NCBI GenBank assembly: GCA_030950485.1
Contig: JAUZRK010000003.1
Coordinates: 20,228 to 84,227 of the forward strand
Source of the DNA: Candidatus Dojkabacteria bacterium
Lineage (GTDB): Bacteria; Patescibacteriota; Dojkabacteria; J137
Length of the DNA stretch: 64,000 bases
Direction of reading: 5' to 3'
Position numbers and translations under genes: made by a program. Of the stretch, positions 12,356 to 31,247 are shown piece by piece. Under the pieces are notes generated by a model. The model saw nothing but the letters and a program-made list of their open reading frames with translations, was not told the DNA's origin and searched no databases. Each line of letters opens with the position of its first letter. Positions within the stretch are counted from its first letter, which is position 1.

Positions 12356-13549
12356 TTATTCAACAATTTCAATTACTACACCTGCACCTACTGTTCTACC
12401 ACCTTCTCTAATAGCGAATGTCATTTGTTCTTCAATTGCTGTCTTACTCATTAGTTCAACAGTAACTGTAACATTATCACCAGGCATTACTAATTGAGCA
12501 TCACCTTCTAGATAGATTGAACCAGTTACATCAGCAGTTCTTATATAGAACTGTGGTTTATAACCAGAACCAAATCCAGTAGCTCTACCTCCTTCTTCTT
12601 TAGAAAGAACATATAATTCTGCTTTAAACTTTGTATGAGGTTTAATAGAACCCTTAGCAGATAATACTTGTCCTCTTTTAATTTCATCTCTCTTAATTCC
12701 TCTTAGTAAGATACCTACATTATCACCAGCTTGACCTTGCCCTAGTGATTTCTTAAACATCTCAACTCCAGTAACTGTTACATTTTTAATATCTTCTGCG
12801 TCACCAACTTGATCTAATATATCATTAACTTTTACAACTCCTCTCTCTATTCTTCCTGTAGCAACTGTACCTCTTCCTTCGATAGAGAATACATCTTCAA
12901 CAGGCATTAAGAATGGTTTATCTAATTCTCTAGCTGGCTCTGGAATTGTCTCATCCATTGTTGCTAGTAATTTAGCCATACCTTCATCTCCATCTTTTTC
13001 ACCAGTTGCTCCATAAAGAGCACTTGCTACTACAAATGGAACTTTTTCTGCGTCGTATCCGTATTTTGTAAGGATATCTTTTACTTCTTCTTTAATCAAC
13101 TCTAATAGATCTTCATCTTGATCATCATCAAATCTGTTTATAAATACCACTAAGTGCTCAACTCCAACTTGCTTAGCTAGTAGAACGTGTTCTCTAGTTT
13201 GTGGCATTGGTCCGTCAGCAGCTGATACAACTAATATAGCACCATCCATCTGAGCTGCTCCAGTAATCATATTCTTAATATAATCCTTGTGTCCTGGACA
13301 GTCAATATGAGCGTAGTGTCTGTTTTCTGATTCGTATTCAACATGAGAAGAAGCAACTGTTACAATTTTATTTGAACCAGCTCTTGCAATTCCTCCTTTA
13401 GCAATATCTTCGTAATTCTTTCCACTTTCTGTCCACCCTTTTCTTCCTGAGTATGCAACTAATGCTGCAGTTAATGTTGTCTTTCCGTGGTCAATGTGAC
13501 CTAAAGTGCCTACGTTAACGTGAGGCTTTGTTCTTTGAAAATCTGCCAT
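12356..13549 (-). CDS. tuf: Translation elongation factor Tu
   Basis: G1 [11 protein letters not shown]2/G3 DCPGHKDY, G4 region FINRFD (NKxD with K to R), [14 protein letters not shown]-terminal beta-barrels. 397 aa. Confidence 0.93.
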
Positions 13550-15838: not shown

Positions 15839-15847
15839 ATGTATTTT

Positions 15848-16678
15848 CTACTTATTTAATTTATTTCTATATCTTCCTATAATTGAATATTCTATTGTAC
15901 ATTTATCTAATATTGTTTTCAAACCTATCTCAGTTGATGAATCTACAAGCATGTCTATCCAAAAAGCATATTCCCAATTTGTATCTGGGATTGGCCTTGA
16001 TTCAATCTTTGTTAGCGATATGCCTATACCTCCGATACTAGTCAAAAGATTCGCTAGTGATCCAGCAGAGTGCGATACTCTATATATAACGGATATTTTC
16101 TTATAGTCTTTAGCTGACTCCTCAACTTCAAATACATTATTACTAACAAATATAAATCTTGTAACATTATTAGAGTAGTTGCCTATATTTTCTATAAGAA
16201 TTTTTAAGCCTTTTTTCTTTGCAAGCTCAGCTGAACCAATACAAGCTTTAGTCTTATCTTTTAACTTCAGAATATCCTCAGCACCCGCAGCAGTACTTTT
16301 AGATTCGTTAACTCCATACCCTCTTTCATTAATCATTTCAGAACACTGAGCTATAGCTTTGGGATGAGAATATACTTCTTTAATATCTTTGATCTCGGCG
16401 CCTTCTAAAACTATGAGATTTAAAACTATATCCATATTTGCTTCGCCTACTATCCTAAGCTCTTTCTTGAACATAAAATCTATATTTACATGTACTGTAG
16501 AAGTAATTGAATTCTCGATCGGTAAAACTCCAATGGTATTAGAATTAGTTATACACCTCTTTACAATTTCGTTAAAATTGTCTGATGGTTCTAAATTATA
16601 ATCGTTAGAATCAAAACATTTAGAAGAAATAATTCCAGAATAACTTTGTTTTGGTCCTAAATAATATACTGTTTTCAT
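15848..16678 (-). CDS. Prephenate (or arogenate) dehydratase, paralog 2 (PDT + ACT)
   Basis: PDT domain (IGVLPIENSITSTV) and ACT domain (LTKIESRPIPDTNWEYAFWIDM); clearly a paralog of the 13812-14666 gene. Confidence 0.75.
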   Translation of the reverse strand: MKTVYYLGPKQSYSGIISSKCFDSNDYNLEPSDNFNEIVKRCITNSNTIGVLPIENSITSTVHVNIDFMFKKELRIVGEANMDIVLNLIVLEGAEIKDIKEVYSHPKAIAQCSEMINERGYGVNESKSTAAGAEDILKLKDKTKACIGSAELAKKKGLKILIENIGNYSNNVTRFIFVSNNVFEVEESAKDYKKISVIYRVSHSAGSLANLLTSIGGIGISLTKIESRPIPDTNWEYAFWIDMLVDSSTEIGLKTILDKCTIEYSIIGRYRNKLNK

Positions 16679-17439
16679 TCTTCTTTAAGTCTTAATTGTT
16701 TGTTAGATATTTGAGACATAGTCTCTTCTATTGACATCTTTATTTTGTCAAACTGTTTACTACAGAATGGATTAAAGTTATACATATCCTCAGTAATCTC
16801 CATATCAGCACCGATCCTTTCTACAAAATCGTGCATTCTTGATGCTGATACTGTGTCAATTTCAGTCCTCTTCATACTCAATGTTTTAAGCACATGAGAA
16901 ATAGTTAGAGTAGTAAAGTGAAATTCTGAGGCTAGTTCATCATGTCTTTCTGCTGAGATTTCTACAATTTTGTTTTTTAGCTTAATAAATATATCCTTTA
17001 CTATATTGTAAATCTCCTCACTTGCGTTAATATTTTCAATCACAATATTAAAACCCTCTACAGAATTATTATTATGTTTATAAGACTCTGGCCCATACAT
17101 TGGATGGGTACAAATTTTCATTACTTCTACCGGAAGCTCTTTAATCATAATTTTTTTGGGATAAGATTTAATAGAACAAACATCTATAAATATTGAATCA
17201 TTATCTATATACTTTGCTACTTCCCTAGTAACTTTTTCAAATGCTTTTATTGGCACTGATGGAATGACAATGTCGCATTTACAAGCATCTTCAAAATCAA
17301 AAAAGTCTTTGTTATCAATTTTCTTTGACCTTGAAGAAAATTTAATTTGGACATCTACAATTACATCTTCAAACATTGTTTTTAATAGTTTCGAAAACTT
17401 TCCATATCCTATTATCCCTATTGTTTTAATTTCCTTCAT
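16675..17439 (-). CDS. tyrA: Prephenate/arogenate dehydrogenase
   Basis: N-terminal Rossmann GxGxxG (IGIIGYGKFS) and the TyrA catalytic block (CTHPMYGPES). Confidence 0.7.
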   Translation of the reverse strand: MKEIKTIGIIGYGKFSKLLKTMFEDVIVDVQIKFSSRSKKIDNKDFFDFEDACKCDIVIPSVPIKAFEKVTREVAKYIDNDSIFIDVCSIKSYPKKIMIKELPVEVMKICTHPMYGPESYKHNNNSVEGFNIVIENINASEEIYNIVKDIFIKLKNKIVEISAERHDELASEFHFTTLTISHVLKTLSMKRTEIDTVSASRMHDFVERIGADMEITEDMYNFNPFCSKQFDKIKMSIEETMSQISNKQLRLKEE

Positions 17440-17707
17440 CTTCTCTAGTTTTTAAAATAAAGTCATGAATTGTGTTCATTAAATCTGAGATTAACTCTTT
17501 GTCAACTCCAACTTTTGCAGCTAGATCTTTTTTCGACTTCAAAACCTCTTCCCATCTTCCTGGAGCATGAGATGGCATACCAGCATCCTGCTTTGTATCC
17601 CAAGCTCTAGAAGCCGCATTTAATCTTTCTGCAACCCAACAAACGGACATATTATCTAATAGATCTATTGAGTCTCTTAATTGTTTTAGTTTTTCTTCTT
17701 GTGTCAT
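17426..17707 (-). CDS. Chorismate mutase, AroQ class (monofunctional)
   Basis: 93-aa helical protein with the AroQ pattern LKQLRDSIDLLDNMSVCWVAERLNAASRAW... Confidence 0.7.
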   Translation of the reverse strand: MTQEEKLKQLRDSIDLLDNMSVCWVAERLNAASRAWDTKQDAGMPSHAPGRWEEVLKSKKDLAAKVGVDKELISDLMNTIHDFILKTREDEGN

Positions 17708-17735
17708 ATTATTTAATAATTAATAAGTTATATAA

Positions 17736-18092
17736 TTAAAATTCTATTCCCCCTTTTATATTCTCAGTGTTATTTCTTATTAGGAAGAGTCTCTTTAAAA
17801 ACTCAACTATCCCTAAATCTTCATTACTCCAATAATAAATCATTGCCCACAGATTGCCCTTATTTGCTGCTATTTCTGCTGAATCCCACTCTCGACCTTT
17901 TGTATCCATATTAAATTTTGCTTTCAGACTTCCAACTATCCTATTCAACATACCTCTCAAACCTTCTACAGCTGGTCTCTCAGAGGAAGCAATAGCATAT
18001 GTTGCCATATTAGCGTTTGGTATATCAGTTCTTGATTCCTCTAAGTCTGTCAAAGGATCTTTACCCGTATATCTTATATTTGGGTCATTCAT
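17736..18092 (-). CDS. Hypothetical protein (118 aa) inside the aromatic-branch operon
   Basis: ORF tightly packed between chorismate mutase and the upstream micro-ORF (3-nt spacing); no recognisable motif. Confidence 0.5.
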   Translation of the reverse strand: MNDPNIRYTGKDPLTDLEESRTDIPNANMATYAIASSERPAVEGLRGMLNRIVGSLKAKFNMDTKGREWDSAEIAANKGNLWAMIYYWSNEDLGIVEFLKRLFLIRNNTENIKGGIEF

Positions 18093-18094
18093 AA

Positions 18095-18229
18095 TTACTC
18101 TTCTCTCCCATACGTCTTTTCTGCTAAATAAGTAGCTCCATCTTCACCTTGCTTAAGCCTTCTACCTGTACCCATTATTAGGTCAACTCCACCCCTACAA
18201 ATATCGGGGAGTGATGATAGTGATGTCAT
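18095..18229 (-). CDS. Micro-ORF, 44 codons (MTSLSSLPDICRGGVDLIMGTGRRLKQGEDGATYLAEKTYGREE); coding status uncertain
   Basis: ATG 21 nt after the stop of the 450-aa gene; its TAA stop lies 2 nt before the ATG of the 118-aa gene. The packing suggests translational coupling. Confidence 0.25.
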   Translation of the reverse strand: MTSLSSLPDICRGGVDLIMGTGRRLKQGEDGATYLAEKTYGREE

Positions 18230-18250
18230 ATTTTTTATTATTGAGTCATA

Positions 18251-19603
18251 TTAATTAACAAGCATTTGGATCAATTCATTGTCTTTATCTAAATCTAGAT
18301 TATGAGCCATTGTAGCCAGTTCCAAAAGTTGATCTGCAGTTAATCTTAAATTTCCTACCCATGCTCTGCCATTTACAAACTGAGTCGAAACAGTTCTAAT
18401 AACTCCCCCCATTCTAATATGAGCTGATAGAAGACCGTATCTGAGCTTTTCAATTTCGCCATTATCCATTTTTATATATATTTCATCTGGTATTACAGCT
18501 TCTTCAATTACGAATCCTCTAAAGTCGGGGTTTTTACTATATTCATCTATAATCAGTTTACTAATTGCTTCAACCTTAGAATTAATATCACCGAACTCCC
18601 ACATAAAAACCTCTACACCATCTCCGTCTGTCCCAAGCCTTCTTTTTAAAACTACATCTGCAACATTATGCTTTTTATGCATTATTCTCAATGTTCCTCT
18701 AATATATAGATTTAATTCCTCAATAGTCATATCACTATCTAGTTCAAGGCAAAACCCTAAACCAAGAGCAAGATCTTCAGGGTTACCACCTGCCGCAGAA
18801 ACTCTTTGATATATTTCGGACTTAGTTTTATCTGGCAGGTTATTTGAATACATTATTTCTTCAGCAGTTTTACTAGATATATCATTTATCTCTTCCCTGA
18901 GGAGTTTAGGATATAAATTTCCCTTATCTATTAATTTAGCCGACTCTGGACCATTAGCCATTACAAACAGTGGAACTCCAACTTCTTGACTTAAGTAAGA
19001 TATAATTATTTTCATTTCAAGATCAAGGTGATACAGATCAATAGCAATATTTTCCTTTCCAAGCTCTTCTATTAAAGTGGCTATCACTTGAGAACCTTGA
19101 GTTTTTAAATTATCTTTATGATCTCTCATAGCCAGTAAAATACTGTGAGAAGTGTAATACATTTCTTCATTACCTATTTTTAATTGTATTCCCTTGTATT
19201 GATCTCCATCTGCTCTAGGGTACCCTTCTCTCCCAGAAAGAACGGTAATGTCACCCTCAGCCTTAGACATGTAGGTTCTCTGAGTACAGACTGAATTAAT
19301 ATCTATTCCCATTTTAGTTGCAACATCGATTTCATGATGATTCATGTCCCTTGTCCCTGAGGCTATAGATAAAGTCCTCCTAGGTGAAATACCAGCTAAA
19401 TGACTATCTATATTTCTTCTACTTAAAGGTATCATTGCTTGCTGACTTAAATGTATATCTAAACTATTCATTAATTCTTCTCCAAGTAATTCCTCACCTA
19501 TTGCCTCTACTCCGCTGTTTGTCAAAACTATTAAGCTACCTCCTTCTTCGCCAAAGGAGAGTCTATCGTATTCTTCTCCAATTTGTAAATTTTCTATAGC
19601 CAT
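18251..19603 (-). CDS. Hypothetical protein (450 aa), GC-richer than its surroundings; function unknown
   Basis: Long ORF with GGG/CCC-rich codons unlike the neighbouring genes; no motif I can assign with confidence (an ATP-grasp ligase is a loose guess only). Confidence 0.55.
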   Translation of the reverse strand: MAIENLQIGEEYDRLSFGEEGGSLIVLTNSGVEAIGEELLGEELMNSLDIHLSQQAMIPLSRRNIDSHLAGISPRRTLSIASGTRDMNHHEIDVATKMGIDINSVCTQRTYMSKAEGDITVLSGREGYPRADGDQYKGIQLKIGNEEMYYTSHSILLAMRDHKDNLKTQGSQVIATLIEELGKENIAIDLYHLDLEMKIIISYLSQEVGVPLFVMANGPESAKLIDKGNLYPKLLREEINDISSKTAEEIMYSNNLPDKTKSEIYQRVSAAGGNPEDLALGLGFCLELDSDMTIEELNLYIRGTLRIMHKKHNVADVVLKRRLGTDGDGVEVFMWEFGDINSKVEAISKLIIDEYSKNPDFRGFVIEEAVIPDEIYIKMDNGEIEKLRYGLLSAHIRMGGVIRTVSTQFVNGRAWVGNLRLTADQLLELATMAHNLDLDKDNELIQMLVN

Positions 19604-19623
19604 AAAAATATATATTATAAAGA

Positions 19624-19660
19624 TAAAAAAAATCCCCTTTCGGGGATTTATATGTTTTTC
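19624..19660 (-). terminator. Rho-independent terminator (bidirectional shape) after the DAHP synthase gene
   Basis: aaaaaaaa-aatcccc-tttc-ggggatt-tatatgttttt; on the minus-strand RNA the hairpin is followed by a U8 tract. Confidence 0.7.
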
Positions 19661-19837
19661 TACTAGATATGCAAAAACAACCCCTAATTAGGATTTCCAA
19701 AAAAGTAAAAGAAAAAATAGTTTTGGTTTGTTTTTGTTTTATTATTCACGAACTGATGATAACAGAAAGTTTAAATATTTAAAATATTTTTCACTAATAT
19801 TTACAGATAGTCTTATGTACTGCCTTATAGATATAGC

Positions 19838-20742
19838 TTATAAGTCTCTATTCTTCGATATATCAACGACTAGTTTTTTAAGCTCACTGATAGAAATATG
19901 CTGCCCAGTATCTGTTTTAGATGTACCAACTTCTATTAAAATCCCATCATATAAAAATCCGCTTTCATTCAACTTCATATTAGCTGCATCAATCGTAGCA
20001 TCTAAAATACTGTCTCTCATTCTTGGACCATAGGCATGGCTTGGGTCAAAGTACAACTTACAACCGGTTCTCTTTTTTACTCTAGCTGCATGATTATGCA
20101 TAGGATAATTTCTATAGTCAGCTTTTTCTGGAATATCAAATCCTCTATGAATCAATACCGTGTGATTCTTATTATCAGAGTAACTAAGCCTTCCCAAGCA
20201 CTCTCAATAGGAGTTTTTAACTCAGAATTTTTATAATTATCTGCAACTTCAATATGTTCACCAACCCATTTCCCATTTTTTAATCCAACTACCCATTCAT
20301 TTTCTTTTGCAACAGCACTCATTTGCATTACTTGCCAGCCTAGTTGATTTACAGAAGGGTTCCAAATCATAACTTTTTGCTTTGGTAATTCTCTTGAGAG
20401 AACAGGTAACTGTACTATTGGCATCATTATTTCTGTAGCAATATTCAAACCTGTCTTTTTAATTATTTCTTTTGCAATTTCTATACTTGGTGGAATTTGA
20501 AAATCTTTAATATTCCCTCCCTTTGGTAGAAGTTGGAAATTGTACATTAAAGTTTCGTAATCCATTCCCATTCCCTCTCCTGACTTATCTAAAACTGTTC
20601 TAGATTTAAGACCTACAATTCTTGTTCCTGTAATTGCCATTTTGCCATTAATCTCTATCTTTGCAATTTCTAAAATCTCCTTTTTATTATTATCTATAGA
20701 ACATGGTCCCGCATAAATTGAGAACTTTTTATTTTTAATCAT
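19838..20742 (-). pseudogene. 3-deoxy-7-phosphoheptulonate (DAHP) synthase, class I-beta/KDO8PS-like, split by a frameshift near 20165-20175
   Basis: Two overlapping ORFs (196 aa + 119 aa). Together they carry GPCSI, KSRT...GxG, EIM, GLKNG, ...LIHRG and CKLYFDPSHAYG (DPSH) motifs in DAHPS order. The junction ..ESAWEG/LSYSDNK is explained by a 1-nt deletion in a G-rich run. A sequencing error cannot be excluded. Confidence 0.6.
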
Positions 20743-20931
20743 AAATACTATTTAAAAACTATAATTGATTATTCAACCTTTTTTAATGACTAAATCTTCA
20801 TAGTAACATTCTATTAGAAATGTTAAACGATAGAAAGGTACATTTAGAATGTCTTTGAAATGTGACAGAAAAAATATTAATCTATATTTGGAAAAAAACC
20901 CACTCTATACTTTATATATTAATTTTCAAAT

Positions 20932-21171
20932 ATGGATCATTCAGTAATAAAAGATCTCCTTTGGAGAGCTCTAACAGATACATCTTTTAGAGAAATTTTA
21001 GTTAGTGATTTTGAATCAGCAGTTAAGGATCATGAGTTATCTGATGAGGATAAAGCTTTACTAAAAAAAGTAGTTAACGATAAACCAGGTCAAATCGACG
21101 ATCTTGGAAGTTATCTTTCTCAAGTTCTAAGCGAAAGAGATAACAAAGGGTTCATTATGGCTGGTGGGTGA
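20932..21171 (+). CDS. Nif11/NHLP-leader-like small protein (79 aa) ending in Gly-Gly immediately before a TGA stop
   Basis: MDHSVIKDLLWRALTDTSFREILVSDFESAVKDHELSDEDKALLKKV resembles the helical Nif11/NHLP leader (LIAKAW.D..F...LL..P..AL...GV.LS.EE). The ORF terminates ...GFIMAGG-TGA with no core peptide. Confidence 0.5.
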   Translation: MDHSVIKDLLWRALTDTSFREILVSDFESAVKDHELSDEDKALLKKVVNDKPGQIDDLGSYLSQVLSERDNKGFIMAGG

Positions 21172-21179
21172 TTAATCTA

Positions 21180-24100
21180 CTATAATTCCAAGAAATCCTC
21201 AGTTTTTGGTCGTATTAATTTATTAAATACAATCTTAAAAAGCTGAGGATTTTCTATCTTTATTCCGTCTATATCTTTTATAGAATCTATAAATTCATCG
21301 TATGATGATATATTAGCTTTAATTTTTATCTTTTCTTCCCCCATATTTATTTCGAATACAGCAAATGTTTTGTCACCTTCATTTATATCTACTATTCCAT
21401 TATTTATATCTATAAACTCACCCAAGATAAATCTTACTTTTGACATGTCATACCTATGAAACGCCGAAGTAACAGCGAGCTGTGGAGAAAGCGCAAATAC
21501 TCTATCAAGCTGATCTAATAGCCTGTCGATATCTCCAGGAACCATTTCTAATGGTAAAGACTTTATTAAATTCATATATAAATTAGCTTTGGTCTCCTTA
21601 TTTCCTGGAATTCTATGAATAAATTCAGGGTAAAGAAAAAGCATACTTGCTAAGTTTGATGAAACATTAGCAACTCTCTGTCTCATAGATTCATCTTCTG
21701 ATTGACCTAGCATTGATAAGACTTGTAATAAGTTAGTAAGGGCATTTAACCTTACTTTAGAAAATTCCATGACGATAACTTCAGGCAAAAGTCTAATCAT
21801 GTCAGAATAGATATCCGAGATTTCAACTCCCGCATAAAATGCTACTACTGGTTGATTAGTAATCAGTTGAGCTTTAGATCTTGCTGGTATCAAAGTACTC
21901 TTAATCAATATATCTAATTTCTCAGGTGCTGTTTTAGCTTCTACCAGTTGTTGTAAAAGATCAACATTCTTAGGCCTTTTAAACATAGGTTCGTATTTTT
22001 GTTTAATTAAATCTATAACCCTACCTTCTTGTTCAACATCTCCATACATAGTGTAAAGAGAAGCTAATGTAATGCCAAAAGCTCTTAGGTCCTTAGCGTT
22101 AATTATTTCGTCTACAGATTGCTCTAAAAACTGAAGCGCTGTTGCATCTTTTTCTCCCTCTTCTTTTAATGCTTTATATGAATCATATAATAATATAGCC
22201 TTAATCCTTGGATTAGTTTTGCATAACTCATAAAACTTTTCTTCAGACTCACTCATTGATTGCTTAAGTCTCAAAGGCATTAGCTTATATTGGTAGCTTA
22301 CTGCTAATCGACCTATAACTTCAGCAGAATTCTCGTCAATTTCACCAGCATAATTGGCAATAGTATTAATTAATTTAATTAGCCTTTGACTATTAGAGAC
22401 TTCAATCCAAGATCCATCAACAGTTTCATTTAATTCTTTCCATTCAGTGTACAAACTAGCCTTAAATACCAAATCTGGGTTATCCAAAGCATTTAAATCA
22501 ACTCTATCTATAAAATTGAATGTAGATTCACCATTTACAAATGCCTTTTCTGCAAGATCTAAAAAAATCATTGAACTTTCAGCTTTTAGGTTAATATATT
22601 CTTCATTCGCCTCTAGGCGTCTAAACTGATCAGCCGTATTATCTAGAAATTGTGCATACACTAAATTATCACCATTAAAAAGAGAAACGTCATTTTCTTT
22701 TACATCTATTGGTGAAACTTCTAGTGTCCCTTGATAAAATTCGTTAGGAAGAATTCTTATACTCCCATCTGCTTCTTCAAATCTTCTAATCGCCTCGATA
22801 CTTTCCAAATAATCTAATTGAGCTCCTAATGTTTCATTTGAATCTACTTCTAAAATCCTACTAAGTGTGTTTAACTTTATACCTAATTGAAAACCTCCGT
22901 AAGCAGCTTCTAGTACTTTTACTCTTATTTCATCCTGTTTCGTAAATTGTTTGTCTCTAAGTTGATTATAAAGAATCTGAATATAGGTAGAATTGCCATC
23001 TCTAATAGAAGCATTATTATATCCGTATTCCTGTCTTCCATGCATTGCTTCTAATTTTGCGAGATATATACTAGCCTCCGACCATCTTTCATTTTCAATA
23101 AAAAGCGTAAGAGTTCTATCAAAATACATTCTAGGTAAGTGATGTATGTGTGATTCAAGAAACTCTTGTGCATTTATAAATTCTCGTTTAGCTTCAAAAT
23201 CAACATCAACTAAGAAAATGTGATAATTTCCTTCTGTTCTGAAGTGAGACACATCACCATCAATTCCTAAATTGTCATTAATGCTACAAGCTATTCTAAT
23301 TCCTGGTTCTCCTCCAGCCTTGATCATATGTCCTGCGGCTCCCCCTAAAGCATTTACATGAATATTAAATTGTGGCGAATTATAGAATCGAAAAGGTATA
23401 GCATTATCAACTGCTGCGGTTATTCTATAGTTTTCATCTAGACGATTATCATGGAGAACCCTAAGTACTTTAGAGATCTCTGCAGTTTGAGCCTCCAGAA
23501 TAATAAAACCATCTGCTCTAACTTTAACATCGTAGCCTAGTAATCTTGCTTTAGACACAGCCTCTAAAATACTCTGCCTGAATTCTTCATCATAATCATC
23601 TCCATTAACATTTCCAATAAAAATAATACTCTGTCCCGCATCTACCTTATCAGCTATTACAATTTCCTGAGTAGCAGTTTTTATATTTTGAACTATCGTA
23701 GTTTTCCAGCTATCTTCAATACTACCTGCTCGAACTTTTAATTCCTGCTTATTTTGCCATATGGATTTAGCACCTACTTTTAAGTGCACATGTGTATCAT
23801 TATGTGCTTTTAATGATTTCAAATTCTTATCTACTTCTTTACTTCTAGTTTCACAGATAATCCCTACTTTATCAGGAGTATTTACATTTCCTATAGCATT
23901 AAAAGTTGTAGTTAATGAATCGCCCTCGGTTGTCCATCTTAGGTCATCTAATATACCAGGATTTAAAGCTATAAGAATGTCATCTAGATGTTCTACGTAG
24001 CCTAAAATCTCTTCCTCACTTCCATAGAAATGAATCCAAGGACTATCTCCCATTACGTCTACTATTACTGCTTTAGCAGCGCATACTTGCCCAGATCTAT

Positions 24101-24527
24101 TTAATTTATCTATAACCATTCCCAAATTACCAAAAGAGCTTCGATATAAGTTTATACCTCTCTCTACTTGTTTCTTACTAAAACCAACTCCATCAATTTC
24201 CCTCATAGCTTGAGGTCTAACATTTTCAGCTAGACTTCTCGCAGCATGTAGATCCCCATCGCTTTGATAATATACGAGAGTTAAATATATTCTTTCTGGA
24301 GAATAACCGTTGCTAGAACAAAAAGCTAATAAGTTATCAATGTCTAGTATAGCCACTTCAGAACCTTCACCAAATGCTCTAGAAAACAAATCAGGATTTT
24401 GCTCATGTATTTCATTAATTGCAGCTAGTGGATCTAACCTAAAATTGTCTAATACCTCTGTCTCAAACTTCCCATTTTCAGACGTTTCACTATAAAGCAG
24501 ATCTTCAGCATCTCTTTTATCTGACAT
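21180..24527 (-). CDS. Large hypothetical protein (1115 aa), no recognisable domain
   Basis: Uninterrupted ORF; no Walker motif, no HExxH, no Cys clusters. Convergent with the NHLP-like gene (8-bp gap) and divergent from the M50 protease gene. Confidence 0.6.
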   Translation of the reverse strand: MSDKRDAEDLLYSETSENGKFETEVLDNFRLDPLAAINEIHEQNPDLFSRAFGEGSEVAILDIDNLLAFCSSNGYSPERIYLTLVYYQSDGDLHAARSLAENVRPQAMREIDGVGFSKKQVERGINLYRSSFGNLGMVIDKLNRSGQVCAAKAVIVDVMGDSPWIHFYGSEEEILGYVEHLDDILIALNPGILDDLRWTTEGDSLTTTFNAIGNVNTPDKVGIICETRSKEVDKNLKSLKAHNDTHVHLKVGAKSIWQNKQELKVRAGSIEDSWKTTIVQNIKTATQEIVIADKVDAGQSIIFIGNVNGDDYDEEFRQSILEAVSKARLLGYDVKVRADGFIILEAQTAEISKVLRVLHDNRLDENYRITAAVDNAIPFRFYNSPQFNIHVNALGGAAGHMIKAGGEPGIRIACSINDNLGIDGDVSHFRTEGNYHIFLVDVDFEAKREFINAQEFLESHIHHLPRMYFDRTLTLFIENERWSEASIYLAKLEAMHGRQEYGYNNASIRDGNSTYIQILYNQLRDKQFTKQDEIRVKVLEAAYGGFQLGIKLNTLSRILEVDSNETLGAQLDYLESIEAIRRFEEADGSIRILPNEFYQGTLEVSPIDVKENDVSLFNGDNLVYAQFLDNTADQFRRLEANEEYINLKAESSMIFLDLAEKAFVNGESTFNFIDRVDLNALDNPDLVFKASLYTEWKELNETVDGSWIEVSNSQRLIKLINTIANYAGEIDENSAEVIGRLAVSYQYKLMPLRLKQSMSESEEKFYELCKTNPRIKAILLYDSYKALKEEGEKDATALQFLEQSVDEIINAKDLRAFGITLASLYTMYGDVEQEGRVIDLIKQKYEPMFKRPKNVDLLQQLVEAKTAPEKLDILIKSTLIPARSKAQLITNQPVVAFYAGVEISDIYSDMIRLLPEVIVMEFSKVRLNALTNLLQVLSMLGQSEDESMRQRVANVSSNLASMLFLYPEFIHRIPGNKETKANLYMNLIKSLPLEMVPGDIDRLLDQLDRVFALSPQLAVTSAFHRYDMSKVRFILGEFIDINNGIVDINEGDKTFAVFEINMGEEKIKIKANISSYDEFIDSIKDIDGIKIENPQLFKIVFNKLIRPKTEDFLEL

Positions 24528-24599
24528 ATAGTTGAAAGATTCAATAAATAGTATATTATATGGCTAGGATAAGTCCCAAACTCAACGAATTATAGCAAG

Positions 24600-25739
24600 A
24601 TGTTCCGTCATCTCCAAATAACAATGACAAAGAGAAATTACAACTGGCAGAGCAATATAACAATAAACGAAAATTTTTATCTAGACAGGGGTGACAGACT
24701 TGGAAAAGATAAAAACTCGTCACATTATTTCCTTATAGATTCTAATAGCTCTAAAAGAGTTTTGATTTCACCTAACGAAGCTTTTATATGGTTAGAGTTA
24801 AAGGAGAACGGTGATGTGAAAGAGGTTCTATTAAACTATCTTAAAACATTTAATAAGATTGATTATGAACTCTTTGAGAATATTTTAGATAAATGGGCAG
24901 ACGAGGGTATTATCTCAGGAAAAAGCTTAAATATTCATGTTAAGGAAAAAAAGATTGTAGCTAAAAATTTTATACACTATATCTATCTGGTATCAAACTT
25001 AAGTATAAATATAAGCCTATTATCAAAGTTAATAAATAATACATATAAACTCATACCAAAGTTTATGTTTTCCAAATTCGTATCTTTGGGCAGTATTCTT
25101 ATAGCTACAATAATAAACTTTTTCTATCTATCAACATTTATAATACAAGGAGAAGACACTTTCAAATCAGATAACGTTGCATCTTCGTCTTCGCTATTAA
25201 GTCTTCTACTCATTCCTATGATAACAATCATAGTGCATGAACTTGGACATGGGCTTGCTCTTAGCCATATTGGGCTTAAAGTTAAACGAAGCGGATTTAG
25301 GCTTGTTTTCGGTATTCCAGTATTCTTTGTCGATACGTCTGATTCTTGGATGAAGAAGGCATATAAAAGAATATTTGTAACTGCTGCGGGGCTTATAGTT
25401 AATTATTTATTAGCTGCAATTAGTTTATTCATTGTAATTTTAAATACTAATTCCTCTATAGATTTATTTTTCATGGCGTTAGCTATTACGAATCTTCTAA
25501 CATTAGCCATCAACCTGATTCCTTTCCTTGATTTTGATGGATACTACCTTTTAATAGACTCTTTTAATTTACCAAATCTAAAAAATGAATCATTTAGAAT
25601 TCTTCTAAGATTTATAGGGGATCATAAAATATCTAGGAATGAAATTCTGTTTTTATTTTTCAGCTTATTTTGGACAATCTTTCTTGCGGCGTTCATTACC
25701 TTTATGTTCTTACAAATATCAGGCCTAATTTTAAATTAA
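24600..25739 (+). CDS. Site-2-protease-like (peptidase M50) integral membrane zinc metalloprotease
   Basis: HELGHGLALSH (HExxH in a TM helix) plus the downstream NLIPFLDFDGYYLL block (S2P NxxPxxxLDG motif); multiple TM helices. Confidence 0.65.
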   Translation: MFRHLQITMTKRNYNWQSNITINENFYLDRGDRLGKDKNSSHYFLIDSNSSKRVLISPNEAFIWLELKENGDVKEVLLNYLKTFNKIDYELFENILDKWADEGIISGKSLNIHVKEKKIVAKNFIHYIYLVSNLSINISLLSKLINNTYKLIPKFMFSKFVSLGSILIATIINFFYLSTFIIQGEDTFKSDNVASSSSLLSLLLIPMITIIVHELGHGLALSHIGLKVKRSGFRLVFGIPVFFVDTSDSWMKKAYKRIFVTAAGLIVNYLLAAISLFIVILNTNSSIDLFFMALAITNLLTLAINLIPFLDFDGYYLLIDSFNLPNLKNESFRILLRFIGDHKISRNEILFLFFSLFWTIFLAAFITFMFLQISGLILN

Positions 25740-25781
25740 TTCCTATTCCTGATAAACTAAATTATATTTATATAATAATTA

Positions 25782-26228
25782 ATGAATAGATCGAATAGCC
25801 AACTTGTTTTTGTGATAGGTGGCTTGCTACTTATAGCAGCTGCTCTTCTTTTTTTAACTTTTGACAGTGTCGATTCTACTGTAAGCAAAGATGATAGTAA
25901 AAATACAGCTGATCTTAATAAAAGTGCTCCTACAAGAGAAGGAGATATAGTCTCTCATATCGTAGATGGTTTTTATCTAGAAGCTGAGTTTAAAGGAGGT
26001 AATTCATGGGACTTTGTAATTAATGGAAGTGTGCCTAATCCCTGTTATACATATGATACTGAAGTTATTATTGCTGAAAGCTTTCCAGAACAAGTCACTG
26101 TAAATTTAGATGTAAATAAACCAGCAGAAGGTCTTATATGTACTCAAGTAATTGAAGAAGTAACTATAAATGGAAGTTACCAAGCAGATGAAAACTCAAC
26201 AGTTAGACTTAAAGTAAATAGAAAGTAA
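25782..26228 (+). CDS. Hypothetical membrane-anchored exported protein (148 aa)
   Basis: N-terminal TM/signal anchor (LVFVIGGLLLIAAALLFLTF), two Cys; immediately downstream of the M50 gene. Confidence 0.5.
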   Translation: MNRSNSQLVFVIGGLLLIAAALLFLTFDSVDSTVSKDDSKNTADLNKSAPTREGDIVSHIVDGFYLEAEFKGGNSWDFVINGSVPNPCYTYDTEVIIAESFPEQVTVNLDVNKPAEGLICTQVIEEVTINGSYQADENSTVRLKVNRK

Positions 26229-26294
26229 CTAACGTATTTCAATAGTACTTTTGAATTTAAGACTTGTAAATTTTTACAGTTCTTTTTTATAACA

Positions 26295-27929
26295 TTACTC
26301 TTTCAATAAATTTCTCAGACTCCAAACTATTGAAATTATAAATATTATAAAAAGAAGTGATGCTATATCTATTCCTAGCAATAATCTCGTTTTCTCAGTT
26401 ATAACCATCATCATGAAACCTAAGAAACTCAGTGTAGATGTAAATAGAACAGCTTCGATTTTTAATTTATATTTATCCTGTTTATTCTTTTCATTGTCAG
26501 TTTGATTGACGTTTATTTTTATACCATCTTCTGTTAATCCTTTAAGCATTTTAGCTGAATCTTTTGGAATACTTGTTATATTCTCTTTCCAATCAAGTAA
26601 ACCTCTATATGCCTTTGCCATGTCTTTCTTAAAGTTATCGGTATTAAGGTAGTTCAACGGCATATTCATTTGTTCCTTTTCAAATAATGGTTTCATCATT
26701 TCTAAAATATTAGAAGTCGGAGCTACTATTTGAAGCATCCCATCATATATTGCTAATACTTTACCTAATAGAACAAGATACATTGGAAACTGAATCCCTA
26801 GTTTTGTCGAAACAAACATAGCTTCAGTAAAAGCTGCAGTAGGGCTATAACTTTCTGCAATTGATGTTTCTAATTTATCAACAATCTTCTTCAGCTCTTT
26901 TGCTATTACATCTTTAGGCTCAGCACCTTCTTCTTGGTCGAATTTTAGTACAGCTTCTGTAAGGCCTAAATAATCACCTGAAATTAACGCAAATGCTATA
27001 TTTTTAAATTCTTCTACTTGAGTTTTAGTTATCATAGTCACTATCCCAAAATCTATGTATGAAATTTTATTAGGTTCATTCAAAATAATATTTGATGGGT
27101 GTGGGTCTGCATGAACTAATCCATAGGTAAATATTTGACGATATATATTTGTCGTGAATAAATCCAAAATCATTTTCCTACTATAAATTTTACCTTTATA
27201 AGGCTGTTCATCACTACCTGTGTATTTAAATAAGTCTAGAAGCTCTTTTATTGATGGACCTTCAATAAACTCAGTAACCAGGATTTTATCAGTAGAGTAT
27301 TCTCTATATACCTTTGGTGTATGGGTATTTGTATCATTTTGAAAATTTTCTCTAAATTTCTCCATACTAGAAGCTTCTATACTATAGTCAAGTTCGTTTA
27401 ACGTCCAATTTTCGAACTCCTTTATTAATTCACCTAGTTGGAGTTGCTTTATCTGGGGAATGAATGCACTTAATTTAACGATATTTTTTAGTATACCTAC
27501 ATCCTCCCTAATGAGCTTTTCCATTCCAGGTTTCTGTATCTTAATTGCTACTTTCTCATTCTCGCTTAGATAACCTATATGGACTTGTCCTAACGAAGCC
27601 ACAGCTATCGCAGTATCATCAATTGCCTCAAGAATATGACTTGCATTCTCCCCAAGTTCCTCAGAAATTAAATTCTCTACTATTTCAAATTCAATCGGTT
27701 CTCCTGAATCTAGTAAGACCTGTAGTTCTTTACACGTAATCTTATGTAGTAGATCATACCTTACACTTAACATTTGACCAAACTTAATATAAGTTGGTCC
27801 TAGTTCAGTGATTATTTGCCTTAACTCTATACTTTTAGCCTTTATTTCAGGATTACCTAGCTTGTGACCTTGGCTGAGTAAAGGGTATAGCGCTCTTAGA
27901 AATTTTGTTATTTTAAATACAGAGTTCAT
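26295..27929 (-). CDS. UbiB/ABC1-family atypical protein kinase with C-terminal TM anchor
   Basis: ABC1 signature GPTYIKFGQMLSVRYDLL, kinase-like catalytic region (HADPHPSNIIL), C-terminal hydrophobic helices. Confidence 0.75.
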   Translation of the reverse strand: MNSVFKITKFLRALYPLLSQGHKLGNPEIKAKSIELRQIITELGPTYIKFGQMLSVRYDLLHKITCKELQVLLDSGEPIEFEIVENLISEELGENASHILEAIDDTAIAVASLGQVHIGYLSENEKVAIKIQKPGMEKLIREDVGILKNIVKLSAFIPQIKQLQLGELIKEFENWTLNELDYSIEASSMEKFRENFQNDTNTHTPKVYREYSTDKILVTEFIEGPSIKELLDLFKYTGSDEQPYKGKIYSRKMILDLFTTNIYRQIFTYGLVHADPHPSNIILNEPNKISYIDFGIVTMITKTQVEEFKNIAFALISGDYLGLTEAVLKFDQEEGAEPKDVIAKELKKIVDKLETSIAESYSPTAAFTEAMFVSTKLGIQFPMYLVLLGKVLAIYDGMLQIVAPTSNILEMMKPLFEKEQMNMPLNYLNTDNFKKDMAKAYRGLLDWKENITSIPKDSAKMLKGLTEDGIKINVNQTDNEKNKQDKYKLKIEAVLFTSTLSFLGFMMMVITEKTRLLLGIDIASLLFIIFIISIVWSLRNLLKE

Positions 27930-27978
27930 CTGATTACATAATACAGTTTTGTCTTCGTTATAGAAAGACTTCTAACTA

Positions 27979-28008
27979 CAAAGGCGGCAATTATAATTGC
28001 CGCCTCTT
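27979..28008 (-). terminator. Stem-loop (ggcggcaa...ttgccgcc) after the ABC-F genes
   Basis: GC-rich palindrome in an AT-rich spacer just 3' of the 28013 stop on the minus strand, followed by a U-rich stretch. Confidence 0.5.
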
Positions 28009-28012
28009 TAAA

Positions 28013-28735
28013 TTAGACTTCGACTAATTCACCTTCTTCTAGTGTTACCACTCTGTCCGGTCCTATATTCTCAGAAAAATATCTATCGTGTGAAATTAAA
28101 ATCATAGCGCCTTTAAATTCTCTAAGTGCTTCTTCAATTACCTCTTTTGTTTTAATATCTAAATGATTAGTTGGCTCATCAAGAATTAAACAATCGTACT
28201 CATGGTAAGTAAAGATTGCGAATGAAAGCCTTGCTCTCTGTCCAGGACTTAATTTACCAATTTTTTGAGACCTTAAATCTTTATCAAAAAGAAATTTTTC
28301 TAATTGTCCGAAAGAACTACTGAAAGAAACATTAGCTTCTCTCATAAAATACTCATCAACTCTCATTTCCATCGGAAGATGTTCTTGATTTTGAGAAAAG
28401 TATTTCCATTTAAGGTTTTCTCCCCATTTTATAGCTCCCTCTACTGGCTTTAGTTCATTAACTAAAAGCTTTATAAAAGTAGATTTACCAGTACCATTAG
28501 GTCCGACTAACCAAATTTTCTCATTTCCATAAATCTCTAGATCTACACCATTAATCAATGGTGTCTTCTCCTCCCCTTGAGGGAAGGCTGGGAGGGGTGA
28601 TGCTCCCCAATCAAAGACTAAGTCATTAACTTCTAAAACTCTCTTAGTTCTACGAACTTCACCTTCAACAGAAATACTTCCTATAAGCTCTTCTTTATAT
28701 GTGCCAATTTCATTTCTACTTACTTCTCTTTTCAT
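28013..28735 (-). CDS. ABC-F family ATPase, C-terminal half (ABC2 domain)
   Basis: Walker A GPNGTGKST, signature LSPGQRARLSFA, Walker B LILDEPTNHLD, H-loop ISHDRYF; ATGA start/stop overlap with the N-terminal half. Confidence 0.75.
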   Translation of the reverse strand: MKREVSRNEIGTYKEELIGSISVEGEVRRTKRVLEVNDLVFDWGASPLPAFPQGEEKTPLINGVDLEIYGNEKIWLVGPNGTGKSTFIKLLVNELKPVEGAIKWGENLKWKYFSQNQEHLPMEMRVDEYFMREANVSFSSSFGQLEKFLFDKDLRSQKIGKLSPGQRARLSFAIFTYHEYDCLILDEPTNHLDIKTKEVIEEALREFKGAMILISHDRYFSENIGPDRVVTLEEGELVEV

Positions 28736-29499
28736 TCTTGTTTTGCAGCTCTTACAGCCTTACCTCTTTGCTTAGCATCTTTAAGTTTTCTACTATTTTC
28801 TAAAAGTTTTTCTAACTGCTCTCTCTTTTTTTCTTGAGCTTTAAATAATCTTGCTCTCTCTTCAATATAATAATCTTTCGCTTCAAGAAACTTATCATAG
28901 TTTCCATCCCAGATTCTTAATGTCTGCTCGTCAATTTCAAAAATTTTATTTGTAAGTGAATTTAAAAACATCCTATCGTGTGAGATCATAATAATGATTC
29001 CATCGAAGTCCTTTAGAAAGCCTTCAAGCCAAATGATTCCATTAATATCTAAGTGATTAGTTGGTTCATCAATTAGTAAAACTGTCGGTTCTTTTATTAA
29101 AACTTTTGCAAGATATAATTTCATTTTCTGCCCCGGACTAAGTGTTTTTACTTCATCAAACTCATCCACATCAAGTTCAAGTTTTGCCAATAATCGATCG
29201 ACTTTCCACATATCGGTATAGTGATTCGCTACTAGTGATTCTAAAAACTCTCCTACAAATGTAAGCTTCTCAAAACTTAGGTCTAACTCTTGAGGTAAAT
29301 ATCCAATTTTCTCTTCTTTAGTCAGGCTTACATGCCCTTTATCTGGATCTTCTAACCCTGCTAAAATTTTCATCAAGCTAGTTTTACCGCATCCATTCAG
29401 ACCAACAAGACCTACTCTTTCTTTATTTCCAAGTATGAAATTAACGCCAGTAAAAAGTAGTTTTTTATATTCAATTTGTAAATTCTCAGCTTTTATCAT
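28732..29499 (-). CDS. ABC-F family ATPase, N-terminal half (ABC1 domain + linker)
   Basis: Walker A GLNGCGKTS, signature LSPGQKMKLYLAK, Walker B LLIDEPTNHLD, H-loop ISHDR, then a charged helical linker (ARLFKAQEKKREQLEKLL..). Ends ..CAAGAATGA, overlapping the next ATG. Confidence 0.75.
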   Translation of the reverse strand: MIKAENLQIEYKKLLFTGVNFILGNKERVGLVGLNGCGKTSLMKILAGLEDPDKGHVSLTKEEKIGYLPQELDLSFEKLTFVGEFLESLVANHYTDMWKVDRLLAKLELDVDEFDEVKTLSPGQKMKLYLAKVLIKEPTVLLIDEPTNHLDINGIIWLEGFLKDFDGIIIMISHDRMFLNSLTNKIFEIDEQTLRIWDGNYDKFLEAKDYYIEERARLFKAQEKKREQLEKLLENSRKLKDAKQRGKAVRAAKQE

Positions 29500-29777
29500 T
29501 GTTTATATTATAAAGTATTAAGTGCAGTATATACATGCACGCTTTATTGAACTTTGTATTACATTATTACTGTTAAGTTATAACTAGAATAAATGAATGT
29601 TGTTTAAGATTTATTAGGCGTGCAGATTGGACTAAGAAGTTTGTACGTAAATTCTCCCAGAGCATAATGATAAATGCTCTAGAAGTTCTCGACTTTTTGT
29701 TTCGAGTAAAATTATCATAAAAAATATTGCCTATATTAACTATAACGGTTAATATAAAAATATATTACACATAGTAA

Positions 29778-30618
29778 ATGAAATATAAAATTACTGCTTT
29801 AGCTGAAAATACAACTTTTAGACATAATGCTCTAGCTCAGCATGGTCAATCTATATTAATTGAAGCTGGAGATGAATATAAAATGCTATTTGATGTCGGA
29901 GAGATTCCGGGTGCTATTGAACATAATATGAAACAATTAAAAGTAGAATTAAATGATATTAATGACGTAGTAATTTCTCATAGACATATTGGTGCACTTA
30001 CAAACATGGTAAGTAATTTAAATGATCAGAGAGTATATTTACCGACGCAGCTTGGTGAAGAAGATATTAGAAATCATCCTGAAAAATATAATTTCCTACC
30101 TAAGAATCCAGACGGAGGATATGACTTAGCAAATATCTAAGGAGGATGCTTTACTTTTAAATGAGAAGCTTAATACTGTAGCTGTAGATAAAGAAGGTTT
30201 TGAAATTTCTCATAATATATATACTTCTGAAATTGCAGGTGATTGGATGGAAGAGCAAGCTATTGTTATCGATCAAAAAGAATTAGGAATAATTGTCATA
30301 GTAGGTTGCTCACATCCAACCTTAGAAGTTATGGTTGAAAAAGCAAAGATTACTACTGGAAATAATAAGGTAAGAGGAATAATAGGAGGTTTTCATCTTG
30401 CAGATAAAACAGAAGACGAGATCATTGAGTCTGCTAATAAATTCAAATCCTTTGGAATTGAGTTTATGGCTCCAGGTCACTGTACAACAGTTGGAGGATG
30501 TCAGATTTTAGAGAAAACCCTAGGAAGTGAAATCGTAAGATTATCTAAAACTGGAACATTTGCTACTGGTAATAATATAGAAATTAATGGCAGTGAGATT
30601 TTATTTAATTTTGTTTAA
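29778..30618 (+). pseudogene. COG1237-type MBL-fold metallo-hydrolase, split by a frameshift (ORFs 29778-30140 and 30247-30618 in different frames)
   Basis: N-terminal part has the beta-lactamase-fold His block (VISHRHIG). C-terminal part has GCSHP...GGFHL...PGHCT motifs typical of this family. Together they reconstitute one ~280-aa protein. Confidence 0.5.
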
Positions 30619-30629
30619 ACAGTAATTTT

Positions 30630-31247
30630 ATGAGAGATGATATCAAATTAGTATCTTTTGATATGTCAGGTACATTAGTTCTCGGATCAGGTTCAAACTC
30701 TGGAGCTAAATTAGTAGGCAGAGGAGATTTCTATGATAAAAATAAAAGTCTATACCAAGATGGAAGTATAACTATGCAAGAATTTCTTACAGGAACATTT
30801 GCTGAATGGGAAGGTTTAAGTATCTCTAAGTTGCCTGAAATAATTGAATCATTTACTTTTAGAGAGAATGCAGAAGAAACTGTTAAAGCTGTTAAAAAGA
30901 AAGGCTATAAAACAGCATTCTTAACAAACGTACCTATTCAATTAAGTATGCTGCTGAAAGAAATGTTTGAGTTTGATTTTGTAGCTGGTACTAATTTAGA
31001 AGTGATAGATAATAAATTTACAGGAAAAATTTTAGAGTATGCAGGTGATAAAGTTGCTTCTTTAGGTAAGATATTAAATACTGCTGGATTAGATTATAAA
31101 GATGTTGTTCATATCGGTGACAGAAGAGATGATGCAGAGGTATTTGAAAAAGTGTCTTTCGGAATTGCAATTAGTGATGATGATTATGTTAATTCTGTAG
31201 CTGATTACCAAATAGAGAAAATAGAAGAGGTTCTAGAAATTCTTTAG
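30630..31247 (+). CDS. HAD-superfamily hydrolase
   Basis: Motif I-like FDMSGTL at the N-terminus and motif IV HIGDRRDDAEVF. Confidence 0.55.
   Translation: MRDDIKLVSFDMSGTLVLGSGSNSGAKLVGRGDFYDKNKSLYQDGSITMQEFLTGTFAEWEGLSISKLPEIIESFTFRENAEETVKAVKKKGYKTAFLTNVPIQLSMLLKEMFEFDFVAGTNLEVIDNKFTGKILEYAGDKVASLGKILNTAGLDYKDVVHIGDRRDDAEVFEKVSFGIAISDDDYVNSVADYQIEKIEEVLEIL

Follow-up and report, generated by a model that had tools for sequence, protein, structure and literature searches.

An Os1348-like small-protein gene and a three-gene cassette in a Candidatus Dojkabacteria genome

The peptide gene and its stop codon

The window analysed here, i.e., the whole 64-kb stretch of Dojkabacteria DNA, carries a complete Os1348-like (NHLP-clan) small-protein gene on its forward strand (20932..21171, TGA stop codon included). 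The deduced protein of 79 aa, MDHSV...ERDNKGFIMAGG, terminates in ...KGFIMAGG with its stop codon at 21169..21171, and the initial annotation was right in reading GFIMAGG followed by TGA. It is followed by a convergent gene coding for 1115 aa on the reverse strand (21180..24527) and, divergent from the latter, by a gene for a 379-aa protease on the forward strand (24600..25739). The stop codon of the convergent gene (21180..21182) lies 8 nt from that of the peptide gene. Beyond the TGA, 24 sense codons (LIYYNSKKSSVFGRINLLNTILKS) remain open before the next in-frame TGA, as had also been pointed out initially; this open stretch runs antisense to the final codons of the convergent gene. Directly 3' of the peptide stop, and within the 3' part of the convergent coding sequence, lies a hairpin followed by a U-rich stretch (21192..21253, forward strand). 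Its RNA fold reaches -24 kcal/mol (z=-3.8), and none of 200 shuffled sequences folded equally well. This hairpin is a possible terminator, left uncalled by a simple terminator scan because of its long loop. Scanning the window for Rfam families and tRNAs gave no hits.

TGA is an ordinary stop in the window. It terminates 6 of the 49 long ORFs, and genes of 971-1115 codons run uninterrupted under table 11, in agreement with the earlier judgement that a TGA=Gly recoding is unlikely. The argument then drawn from pheA has to be corrected, since the prephenate dehydratase ORF (15848..16678, reverse strand) ends in TAG; it is the neighbouring aminotransferase and prephenate dehydrogenase genes that end in TGA. 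No Shine-Dalgarno-like motif precedes the peptide gene, which is normal here since only one of 42 long ORFs of the window has such a motif upstream. The Chloroflexota homologues described below have a strong AAGGAGGG (Shine-Dalgarno-like) upstream.

The apparent ending might be suspected of stemming from an indel introduced by assembly into the GGG run ahead of the stop codon, the more so as homopolymer indels distinguish the window from a public record elsewhere. Contig JAUZSD010000001.1 of GCA_030949735.1, a Candidatus Dojkabacteria MAG, is 99.9% identical to the window; over 17284..31170 (13.9 kb) the two are separated by 4 mismatches and 8 indels of one base, for the most part in homopolymers. 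Both versions nevertheless agree over the whole peptide gene, and the homologues considered below end at the same position. Hand translation of a +1 or -1 slip in the GGG run yields ...AGGD* or ...AGGVINLL*; the short ending is robust to such an indel since either frameshift adds just 1 or 5 residues. Consequently, an assembly origin of the ending is extremely unlikely. A protein identical to the window peptide is present in NCBI.

Other genes of the window are interrupted. A frameshift divides the DAHP synthase gene (19838..20742, reverse strand) into two ORFs, one of 196 aa (20152..20742) and one of 119 aa (19838..20197), and GCA_030949735.1 has a similar split (196 aa and 105 aa) at the corresponding position; either a pseudogene or an assembly error common to both versions could explain this. 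An ABC-F-type ATPase (ABC_tran, ABC_tran_Xtn, ABC_tran; 28013..29499, reverse strand) is encoded by two ORFs overlapping by ATGA, and JAUZSD010000001.1 shows further homopolymer indels in this region. Within the aromatic amino acid operon, between chorismate mutase and DAHP synthase, three ORFs of 118, 44 and 450 aa (17736..19603, reverse strand) have no family match.

Homologues of the peptide and their C-terminal tails

The peptide was initially described as NHLP-like, a description that held for part of its sequence. A nitrile-hydratase-alpha-like, NHLP-clan segment (aa 8-47; 20953..21072, forward strand) matches the NCBIfam model NF038399 (Os1348 family NHLP clan) with an E-value of 2.3e-7 and a score of 30.8 bits, under the cut-off of 40, and the peptide also matches the Pfam models Frankia_peptide (5e-4) and NHase_alpha (0.09). 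Neither the canonical NHLP leader model TIGR03793 nor the Nif11 models (TIGR03798, PF07862) matched it at E<=1. The option of a stand-alone Nif11-domain protein, the closest of those proposed initially, was apt for a complete small domain protein but named the wrong domain. A profile of the peptide family reaches nitrile hydratase alpha chains (1.7e-6 to 1e-3) and the crystal structure of Os1348 (6lk7; 3.7e-4), in both cases through its N-terminal half only (aa 8-52). The three closest homologues also score under the 40-bit cut-off of NF038399 (26.9-35.7 bits); P0008 (60 bits) and P0006 (72.2 bits) exceed it. We consider the NHLP-like character of the window peptide real but weak, and confined to aa 8-47.

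Two longer proteins carry repeats of this kind. P0006 (188 aa) contains two NHLP-like repeats. P0004 (769 aa), found in the representative search, contains four in tandem, each ending in ELLCA[NH]GGPCG, with hydrophobic stretches near the N-terminus and before the repeats as well as weak Ig-like and carboxypeptidase-regulatory-like matches; it may represent a surface protein to which a multi-core precursor of the NHLP type is fused.

When queried with the peptide, a word index of 5.8 billion proteins returned only the organism's own protein. By contrast with this single hit, phmmer against 1.84 billion protein representatives retrieved three full-length homologues of 78, 77 and 79 aa (32-46% identical), and a profile search added 13 others, all from Chloroflexota (12 of 73 aa and one of 60 aa). 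One of the latter, P0015, is named Os1348 family NHLP clan protein in its NCBI record. The three close homologues and the 13 from Chloroflexota all terminate at one aligned position, by a TAA or TAG codon, and their endings include ...KGWSIGSM, ...KGFANIG, ...KGFVNIGV, ...KGFFRVGP and ...KGMFRIGT. A C-terminal GG is found only in the window peptide and in two Chloroflexota cluster representatives (...KGMFRIGG), the remaining homologues ending in SM, IG, GV, GP, GL or GT. The 0-18 codons 3' of the homologue stops are unrelated and reveal no common extension. Homologues of similar length ending there with a stop were the refuting observation named initially, and all of those found proved to be of similar length and to stop at the same place.

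Since the homologues end differently at the same aligned position, the terminal GG of the window peptide is incidental. Its initial interpretation as the leader/core junction of a leader without core consequently fails, as most homologues reach the same stop position without GG. Furthermore, since the homologues share length and stop position, the peptide gene is complete and neither truncation nor read-through is needed to account for it. That the gene is the remnant of a truncated NHLP precursor whose core was lost, an idea prompted by its ending in GG like the canonical NHLP leaders, is highly improbable: homologues from independent contigs and two phyla (three of 77-79 aa and 13 of 60-73 aa) share its length and end, few parts of the protein are as conserved as the C-terminal motif, and gene order is conserved. 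Also proposed initially, a programmed read-through or recoding of the TGA, by which the 24 open codons would add 24 residues, can, on the sequence evidence, practically be disregarded. The homologues stop there with TAA or TAG and without a comparable extension, the added codons would lie antisense to the end of the convergent gene and enter the stable hairpin, and TGA ends other genes of the window. A false lead is thereby removed, in that there is no recoding, read-through or pseudogene at the peptide gene. Additional NHLP-type precursors, a search for which the initial annotation had suggested, were not found either, the 64-kb window containing no further NHLP-like ORFs. The window peptide is a complete, Os1348-like member of a rare family of small proteins in the nitrile-hydratase-leader clan. 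NHLP-clan small proteins can be conserved though nearly devoid of a core.

The last helix of the peptide ends in an L-x-x-R-x-x-K-G motif (LSERDNKG, aa 66-73; 21127..21150, forward strand), in which L66, R69, K72 and G73 are invariant in 16 aligned sequences. This helix, together with R69/K72/G73, ranks with the best-conserved columns of the alignment, and no C-terminal element is more conserved than the motif. They are followed by a variable C-terminal tail, FIMAGG in the window peptide (aa 74-79; 21151..21168, forward strand), which is a candidate mini-core with GG as its end. Across the homologues the tail counts 4-6 residues (e.g., WSIGSM, FANIG, FVNIGV, FFRVGP, MFRIGG). An alignment of 12 diverse members likewise contained a short C-terminal stretch behind the Arg/Lys motif and no double-Gly junction. 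AF2 run on the 16-sequence alignment predicted helices over aa 3-72 and a disordered tail (aa 73-79) with a mean pLDDT of 74.7; the pLDDT is about 80 over aa 11-50, averages about 70 over aa 51-70 and falls below 50 in the tail. The window peptide has no transmembrane helix, and a TMcin-type membrane RiPP was dropped as a candidate on this ground.

The convergent orphan gene, the protease gene and related loci

The peptide, the convergent large gene and the divergent protease gene occur in the same order and orientation on every contig bearing one of the three close homologues. These loci represent three independent metagenomic contig sets, L002, L003 and L004-L009. L003 encodes the peptide, a large protein of 1067 aa and a protease of 382 aa, and L004-L006 encode the peptide, a large protein of 933 aa and a protease of 361 aa. 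Contigs L002 and L007-L009 end inside the large gene, and the L002 set thus ends before any protease gene. A further contig of 24% GC, L015, carries the protease and the divergent large gene. The outer flanking genes differ at each of these loci. L002 comes from a relative of the window organism, their EF-Tu proteins being 85% identical. Judging from gene order, the peptide, the orphan of about 1000 aa and the intramembrane protease form a previously undescribed three-gene cassette. Since the peptide lies in a conserved cassette with a RiPP-type leader peptidase, a role as precursor stays plausible.

The tuf gene lies about 7 kb upstream of the cassette both in the window (12356..13549) and in L002 (10..1203). 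The intervening genes are wholly different: the window has the aromatic amino acid operon there, whereas L002 has AbiEii, hydrolases, M32 and VanY.

The middle gene is the most unusual part of the cassette. The 1115-aa protein has no match in Pfam, NCBIfam, PADLOC or PHROGs, and four large proteins taken together gave nothing usable in these libraries. A word-indexed search of 5.8 billion proteins with the 1115-aa sequence returned only the organism's own proteins, and BLASTP against all long ORFs of 43 metagenomic loci returned nothing. It lacks a Walker A motif, and AF2 on the single sequence gave an unusable model (pLDDT 39). Yet a gene of 933-1067 aa, or one cut by the contig end, matches it in position and orientation in L002, L003, L004-L009 and L015. 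No whole-length similarity among the large proteins was detected by BLASTP, hhalign or shuffle-controlled alignment, unlike for the flanking peptides and proteases, which are 29-46% identical. The 1115-aa ORF is intact in the window and split into 196 aa and 909 aa in JAUZSD010000001.1.

The only part weakly common to the large proteins is a region of about 60 residues near the N-terminus (aa 150-212; 23892..24080, reverse strand), in which two Asp-containing motifs, VIVDVMGDS and EGDSLTTTF in the window protein, are separated by 46 aa. By eye, the four large proteins share the motifs h-x-h-D-[VA]-[IM]-[GN]-[SD]-x and [DGE]-G-D-[GS] with a spacing of 41-46 residues. Compared with shuffled sequences, four of the six pairs were significant over this region (window-L003, z=4.2; L003-L004, z=6.3; L015-L003, z=4.4; L015-L004, z=4.2); window-L004 and window-L015 were not. 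The region also resembles, by eye, the signature of class III cyclases. However, hhalign gave an E-value of 0.5, PDB searches with single sequences and with a profile returned nothing, an HMM built from four real cyclase domains and the Pfam models matched no cyclase in the large proteins, and alignments with real cyclase domains stayed at chance level. A class III cyclase identity of this N-terminus is thus unsupported by HMM, PDB and hhalign searches.

The large protein appears to be very fast-evolving, with positional orthologues that have no detectable whole-length similarity although EF-Tu is 85% identical. Such a pattern of divergence is expected under strong diversifying pressure. In a further reading, the peptide would serve as scaffold for a C-terminal, amino-acid-derived product, with the protein of about 1000 aa as ligase and the protease releasing the product. 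In pearlin biosynthesis (3-thiaglutamate, ammosamide), the product is built on the C-terminus of a peptide and then cut off, and a conserved leader nearly without core, a large neighbour and a protease would fit this logic. However, the four large proteins match no LanB/PEARL domain or other family and have no common conserved catalytic region, and the peptide tails vary in length and in their final residue. We therefore regard a pearlin-like scaffold as very unlikely.

The 379-aa protein encoded at the far end of the cassette is an intramembrane HExxH metalloprotease of the M50/site-2-protease type. It matches the daptide_HExxH model NF041824 (7.8e-32, 110.8 bits, cut-off 300), the YydH/LiaK model NF058609 (1.6e-17, 64 bits, cut-off 225) and Pfam Peptidase_M50 (1.1e-6), and its homologues at the equivalent position in L003 and L004 are 29-32% identical. 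The zinc-binding motif HELGH (aa 213-217; 25236..25250, forward strand) is invariant in the three aligned proteases, and so are N305, L306, P308, D313, G314, Y315 and Y316 of the second site-2-protease motif NLIPFLDFDGYY (N..P..LDG type; aa 305-316; 25512..25547, forward strand). Both motifs, HExxH and N..P..LDG, lie in the membrane domain, as in site-2-type leader peptidases. The N-terminal soluble domain (aa 1-115; 24600..24944, forward strand) is a candidate RiPP recognition element (RRE). It contains a conserved EAF[IL]W stretch that resembles PqqD by eye; neither a PDB profile search nor Pfam on the isolated domain detected PqqD or an RRE in the window protease. The L004 protease aligns to positions 15-326 of the daptide protease profile, which means that its N-terminus is covered by this profile, and in the relative from L025 a Pfam PqqD domain precedes M50 (24.0 bits, cut-off 23.4). 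Daptide MpaP is an RRE fused N-terminally to an intramembrane site-2 protease and removes the leader (PMC10028931). Based on its sequence similarities, the window protease probably belongs with the RRE-fused leader peptidases of the daptide MpaP and YydH family.

A metagenome scan with the protease alignment yielded 43 loci. An Os1348-like peptide is encoded directly beside the protease gene in seven of them (L019/L020, L021/L022, L024, L025, L029), representing five distinct arrangements. Each of these protease-adjacent distant peptides combines the N-terminal domain with an Arg-containing [DE]xRxxK motif, behind which 3-25 residues form the tail. L021/L022 contain two peptide copies, each followed by a B12-binding radical SAM enzyme, which is a typical RiPP arrangement. 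The proteases of L018, L025 and L029 are fused to two cyclic-nucleotide-binding domains, N-terminal with PqqD in L025 and C-terminal in L018 and L029, and L029 additionally encodes an adjoining Guanylate_cyc-Pkinase-nSTAND1-WD40 protein of 1352 aa.

The Chloroflexota peptide copies are nearly invariant, tail included, and no protease gene lies within 8-10 kb of them. In L010 to L014 the 73-aa homologue always adjoins a convergent gene for a DUF87 (HerA-like) ATPase and a gene for a 227-aa protein, and it lies downstream of a gene for a Guanylate_cyc-AAA_16-TPR protein of 1220-1266 aa. The genes between the cyclase protein and the peptide are variable and include a HEPN/ParA-like pair, an NMN transporter and a NadR-like protein. 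Two copies of the 73-aa peptide occur in L010.

More speculatively, the three genes of the window could constitute a module of candidate-phyla-radiation bacteria, RiPP-like or serving in signalling, that has not been described before. The peptide would be a folded NHLP-type carrier from which the protease, guided by an RRE, releases a pheromone-like C-terminal peptide of 4-6 residues, the large protein would act as control and its two-Asp domain would maybe be a divergent cyclase. This proposal fits the loci just described because cyclic-nucleotide-binding domains are fused to the protease in L018, L025 and L029 and because cyclase-STAND proteins adjoin the peptide in L029 and in Chloroflexota; we nevertheless deem it unlikely.

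Proposed role of the peptide and comparison with known systems

The window peptide is probably a complete mini-core precursor of the Os1348/PosA type, processed by the neighbouring intramembrane protease. Its length and stop shared with the homologues, its motif followed by a disordered tail, the conserved cassette, the family of the protease, the distant peptide-protease pairs and the precedent of PosA and PflA all speak for a precursor. PosA (=Os1348) and PflA, two precursors of the NHLP type, have no double-Gly site and receive their modification at a short conserved stretch of the C-terminus (PMC12636437, a 2025 preprint). The combination of a folded NHLP-like leader and a tiny C-terminal core thus has a precedent. 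According to this hypothesis, the window peptide would be the substrate of the neighbouring HExxH/LDG protease, the N-terminal domain of which would bind the folded, leader-like part of the peptide. The membrane-embedded active site would then cut near the R-x-x-K-G motif (R69-G73), so that the short tail, perhaps modified beforehand, would be released or exposed. The large protein would act as a modifying or regulating partner. The terminal Gly-Gly is just the end of the tail FIMAGG and not a leader/core junction.

Several observations argue against a precursor. For a core, 4-6 residues would be uncommonly few, conservation extends over the whole peptide as in a folded protein and unlike in a leader with a hypervariable core, the Chloroflexota copies are near-invariant and lack a protease, and the score on the Os1348 model is under the cut-off. 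Furthermore, no recognisable modifying enzyme was found in the cassette, the large proteins show no detectable relationship over their length, which would be odd for an enzyme, and no RRE was detected in the window protease. The main rival is a stand-alone regulatory or adaptor protein acting uncleaved, as partner of the large protein or modulator of the protease, in which the nitrile-hydratase-like fold might be a protein-binding module only. Such a role would agree with a sequence that is conserved throughout and predicted to be folded, and with Chloroflexota homologues that stand without a protease by a DUF87 ATPase and near a cyclase-AAA-TPR protein. Os1348 itself was seen full-length in cell lysates (PMC12636437), and its crystals contained a dimer (PMC7726476). 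On the other hand, the protease family is otherwise known for the removal of RiPP leaders (PMC10028931), distant relatives of the peptide adjoin radical SAM enzymes and RRE-containing proteases, and a conserved motif followed by a variable, flexible tail resembles a processing site. We thus hold an uncleaved stand-alone protein to be possible but doubtful, and retain the mini-core precursor as the probable function of the peptide.

The three genes represent a compact cassette of one Dojkabacteria genome and close relatives which current family libraries do not recognise, and which would tie the Os1348-like family to RRE-fused intramembrane proteases.

Like the canonical NHLP/Nif11 precursors (e.g., proteusins, prochlorosins), the window peptide is distantly nitrile-hydratase-alpha-like over its first ~45 residues, and its leader-like domain is predicted to be folded. 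Unlike them, it has no core after Gly-Gly, and GG is not conserved in its family. No LanM, cyclodehydratase or radical SAM partner was found among the window neighbour genes scanned. The window protease matches the models of both the daptide protease MpaP and the epipeptide protease YydH/LiaK and shares their HExxH and LDG motifs, but it scores far under the equivalog cut-offs (110.8 vs 300 and 64 vs 225 bits, respectively). In addition, the window peptide ends in Gly and lacks the invariant C-terminal Thr of daptides, and neither daptide MpaB/C/D/M nor YydG-type genes lie near the cassette. The 73-aa Chloroflexota proteins (P0010-P0022) share the architecture of the window peptide, with LEKRDSKGF followed by a tail of 4-5 residues, while their last helix is 8 residues shorter and their genes lack both the protease and the convergent orphan gene.

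The closest comparison is with Os1348/PosA and with PflA of Pseudomonas (6lk7). The hosts differ, Os1348 coming from Pseudomonas and the window from a Dojkabacteria genome of the candidate phyla radiation. The window peptide scores below the cut-off of the Os1348 family (30.8 vs 40 bits). In Os1348/PosA the stretch matching the conserved motif reads ...IRDK and is followed by 17 residues (IGVAAIFDTQQQQARMD), whereas the tails of the window family count 4-6 residues and lack the poly-Gln/ARMD. Os1348 neighbours a GNAT, a soluble alpha-KG HExxH enzyme and an MNIO-nitroreductase, whereas the window peptide neighbours an intramembrane protease and a 1115-aa orphan; no GNAT, alpha-KG HExxH hydroxylase or MNIO/SagB-like nitroreductase was found among the genes from 14663 to 30618. 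The resemblances concern the peptides themselves, which are about 80 aa long, nitrile-hydratase-alpha-like at the N-terminus and devoid of a double-Gly cleavage site. In both, an Arg-containing motif precedes a short C-terminal stretch, and it is there that the chemistry occurs in Os1348/PosA (PMC12636437, PMC7726476). The window peptide would therefore extend this recently described type of precursor, in which chemistry takes place at the extreme C-terminus.
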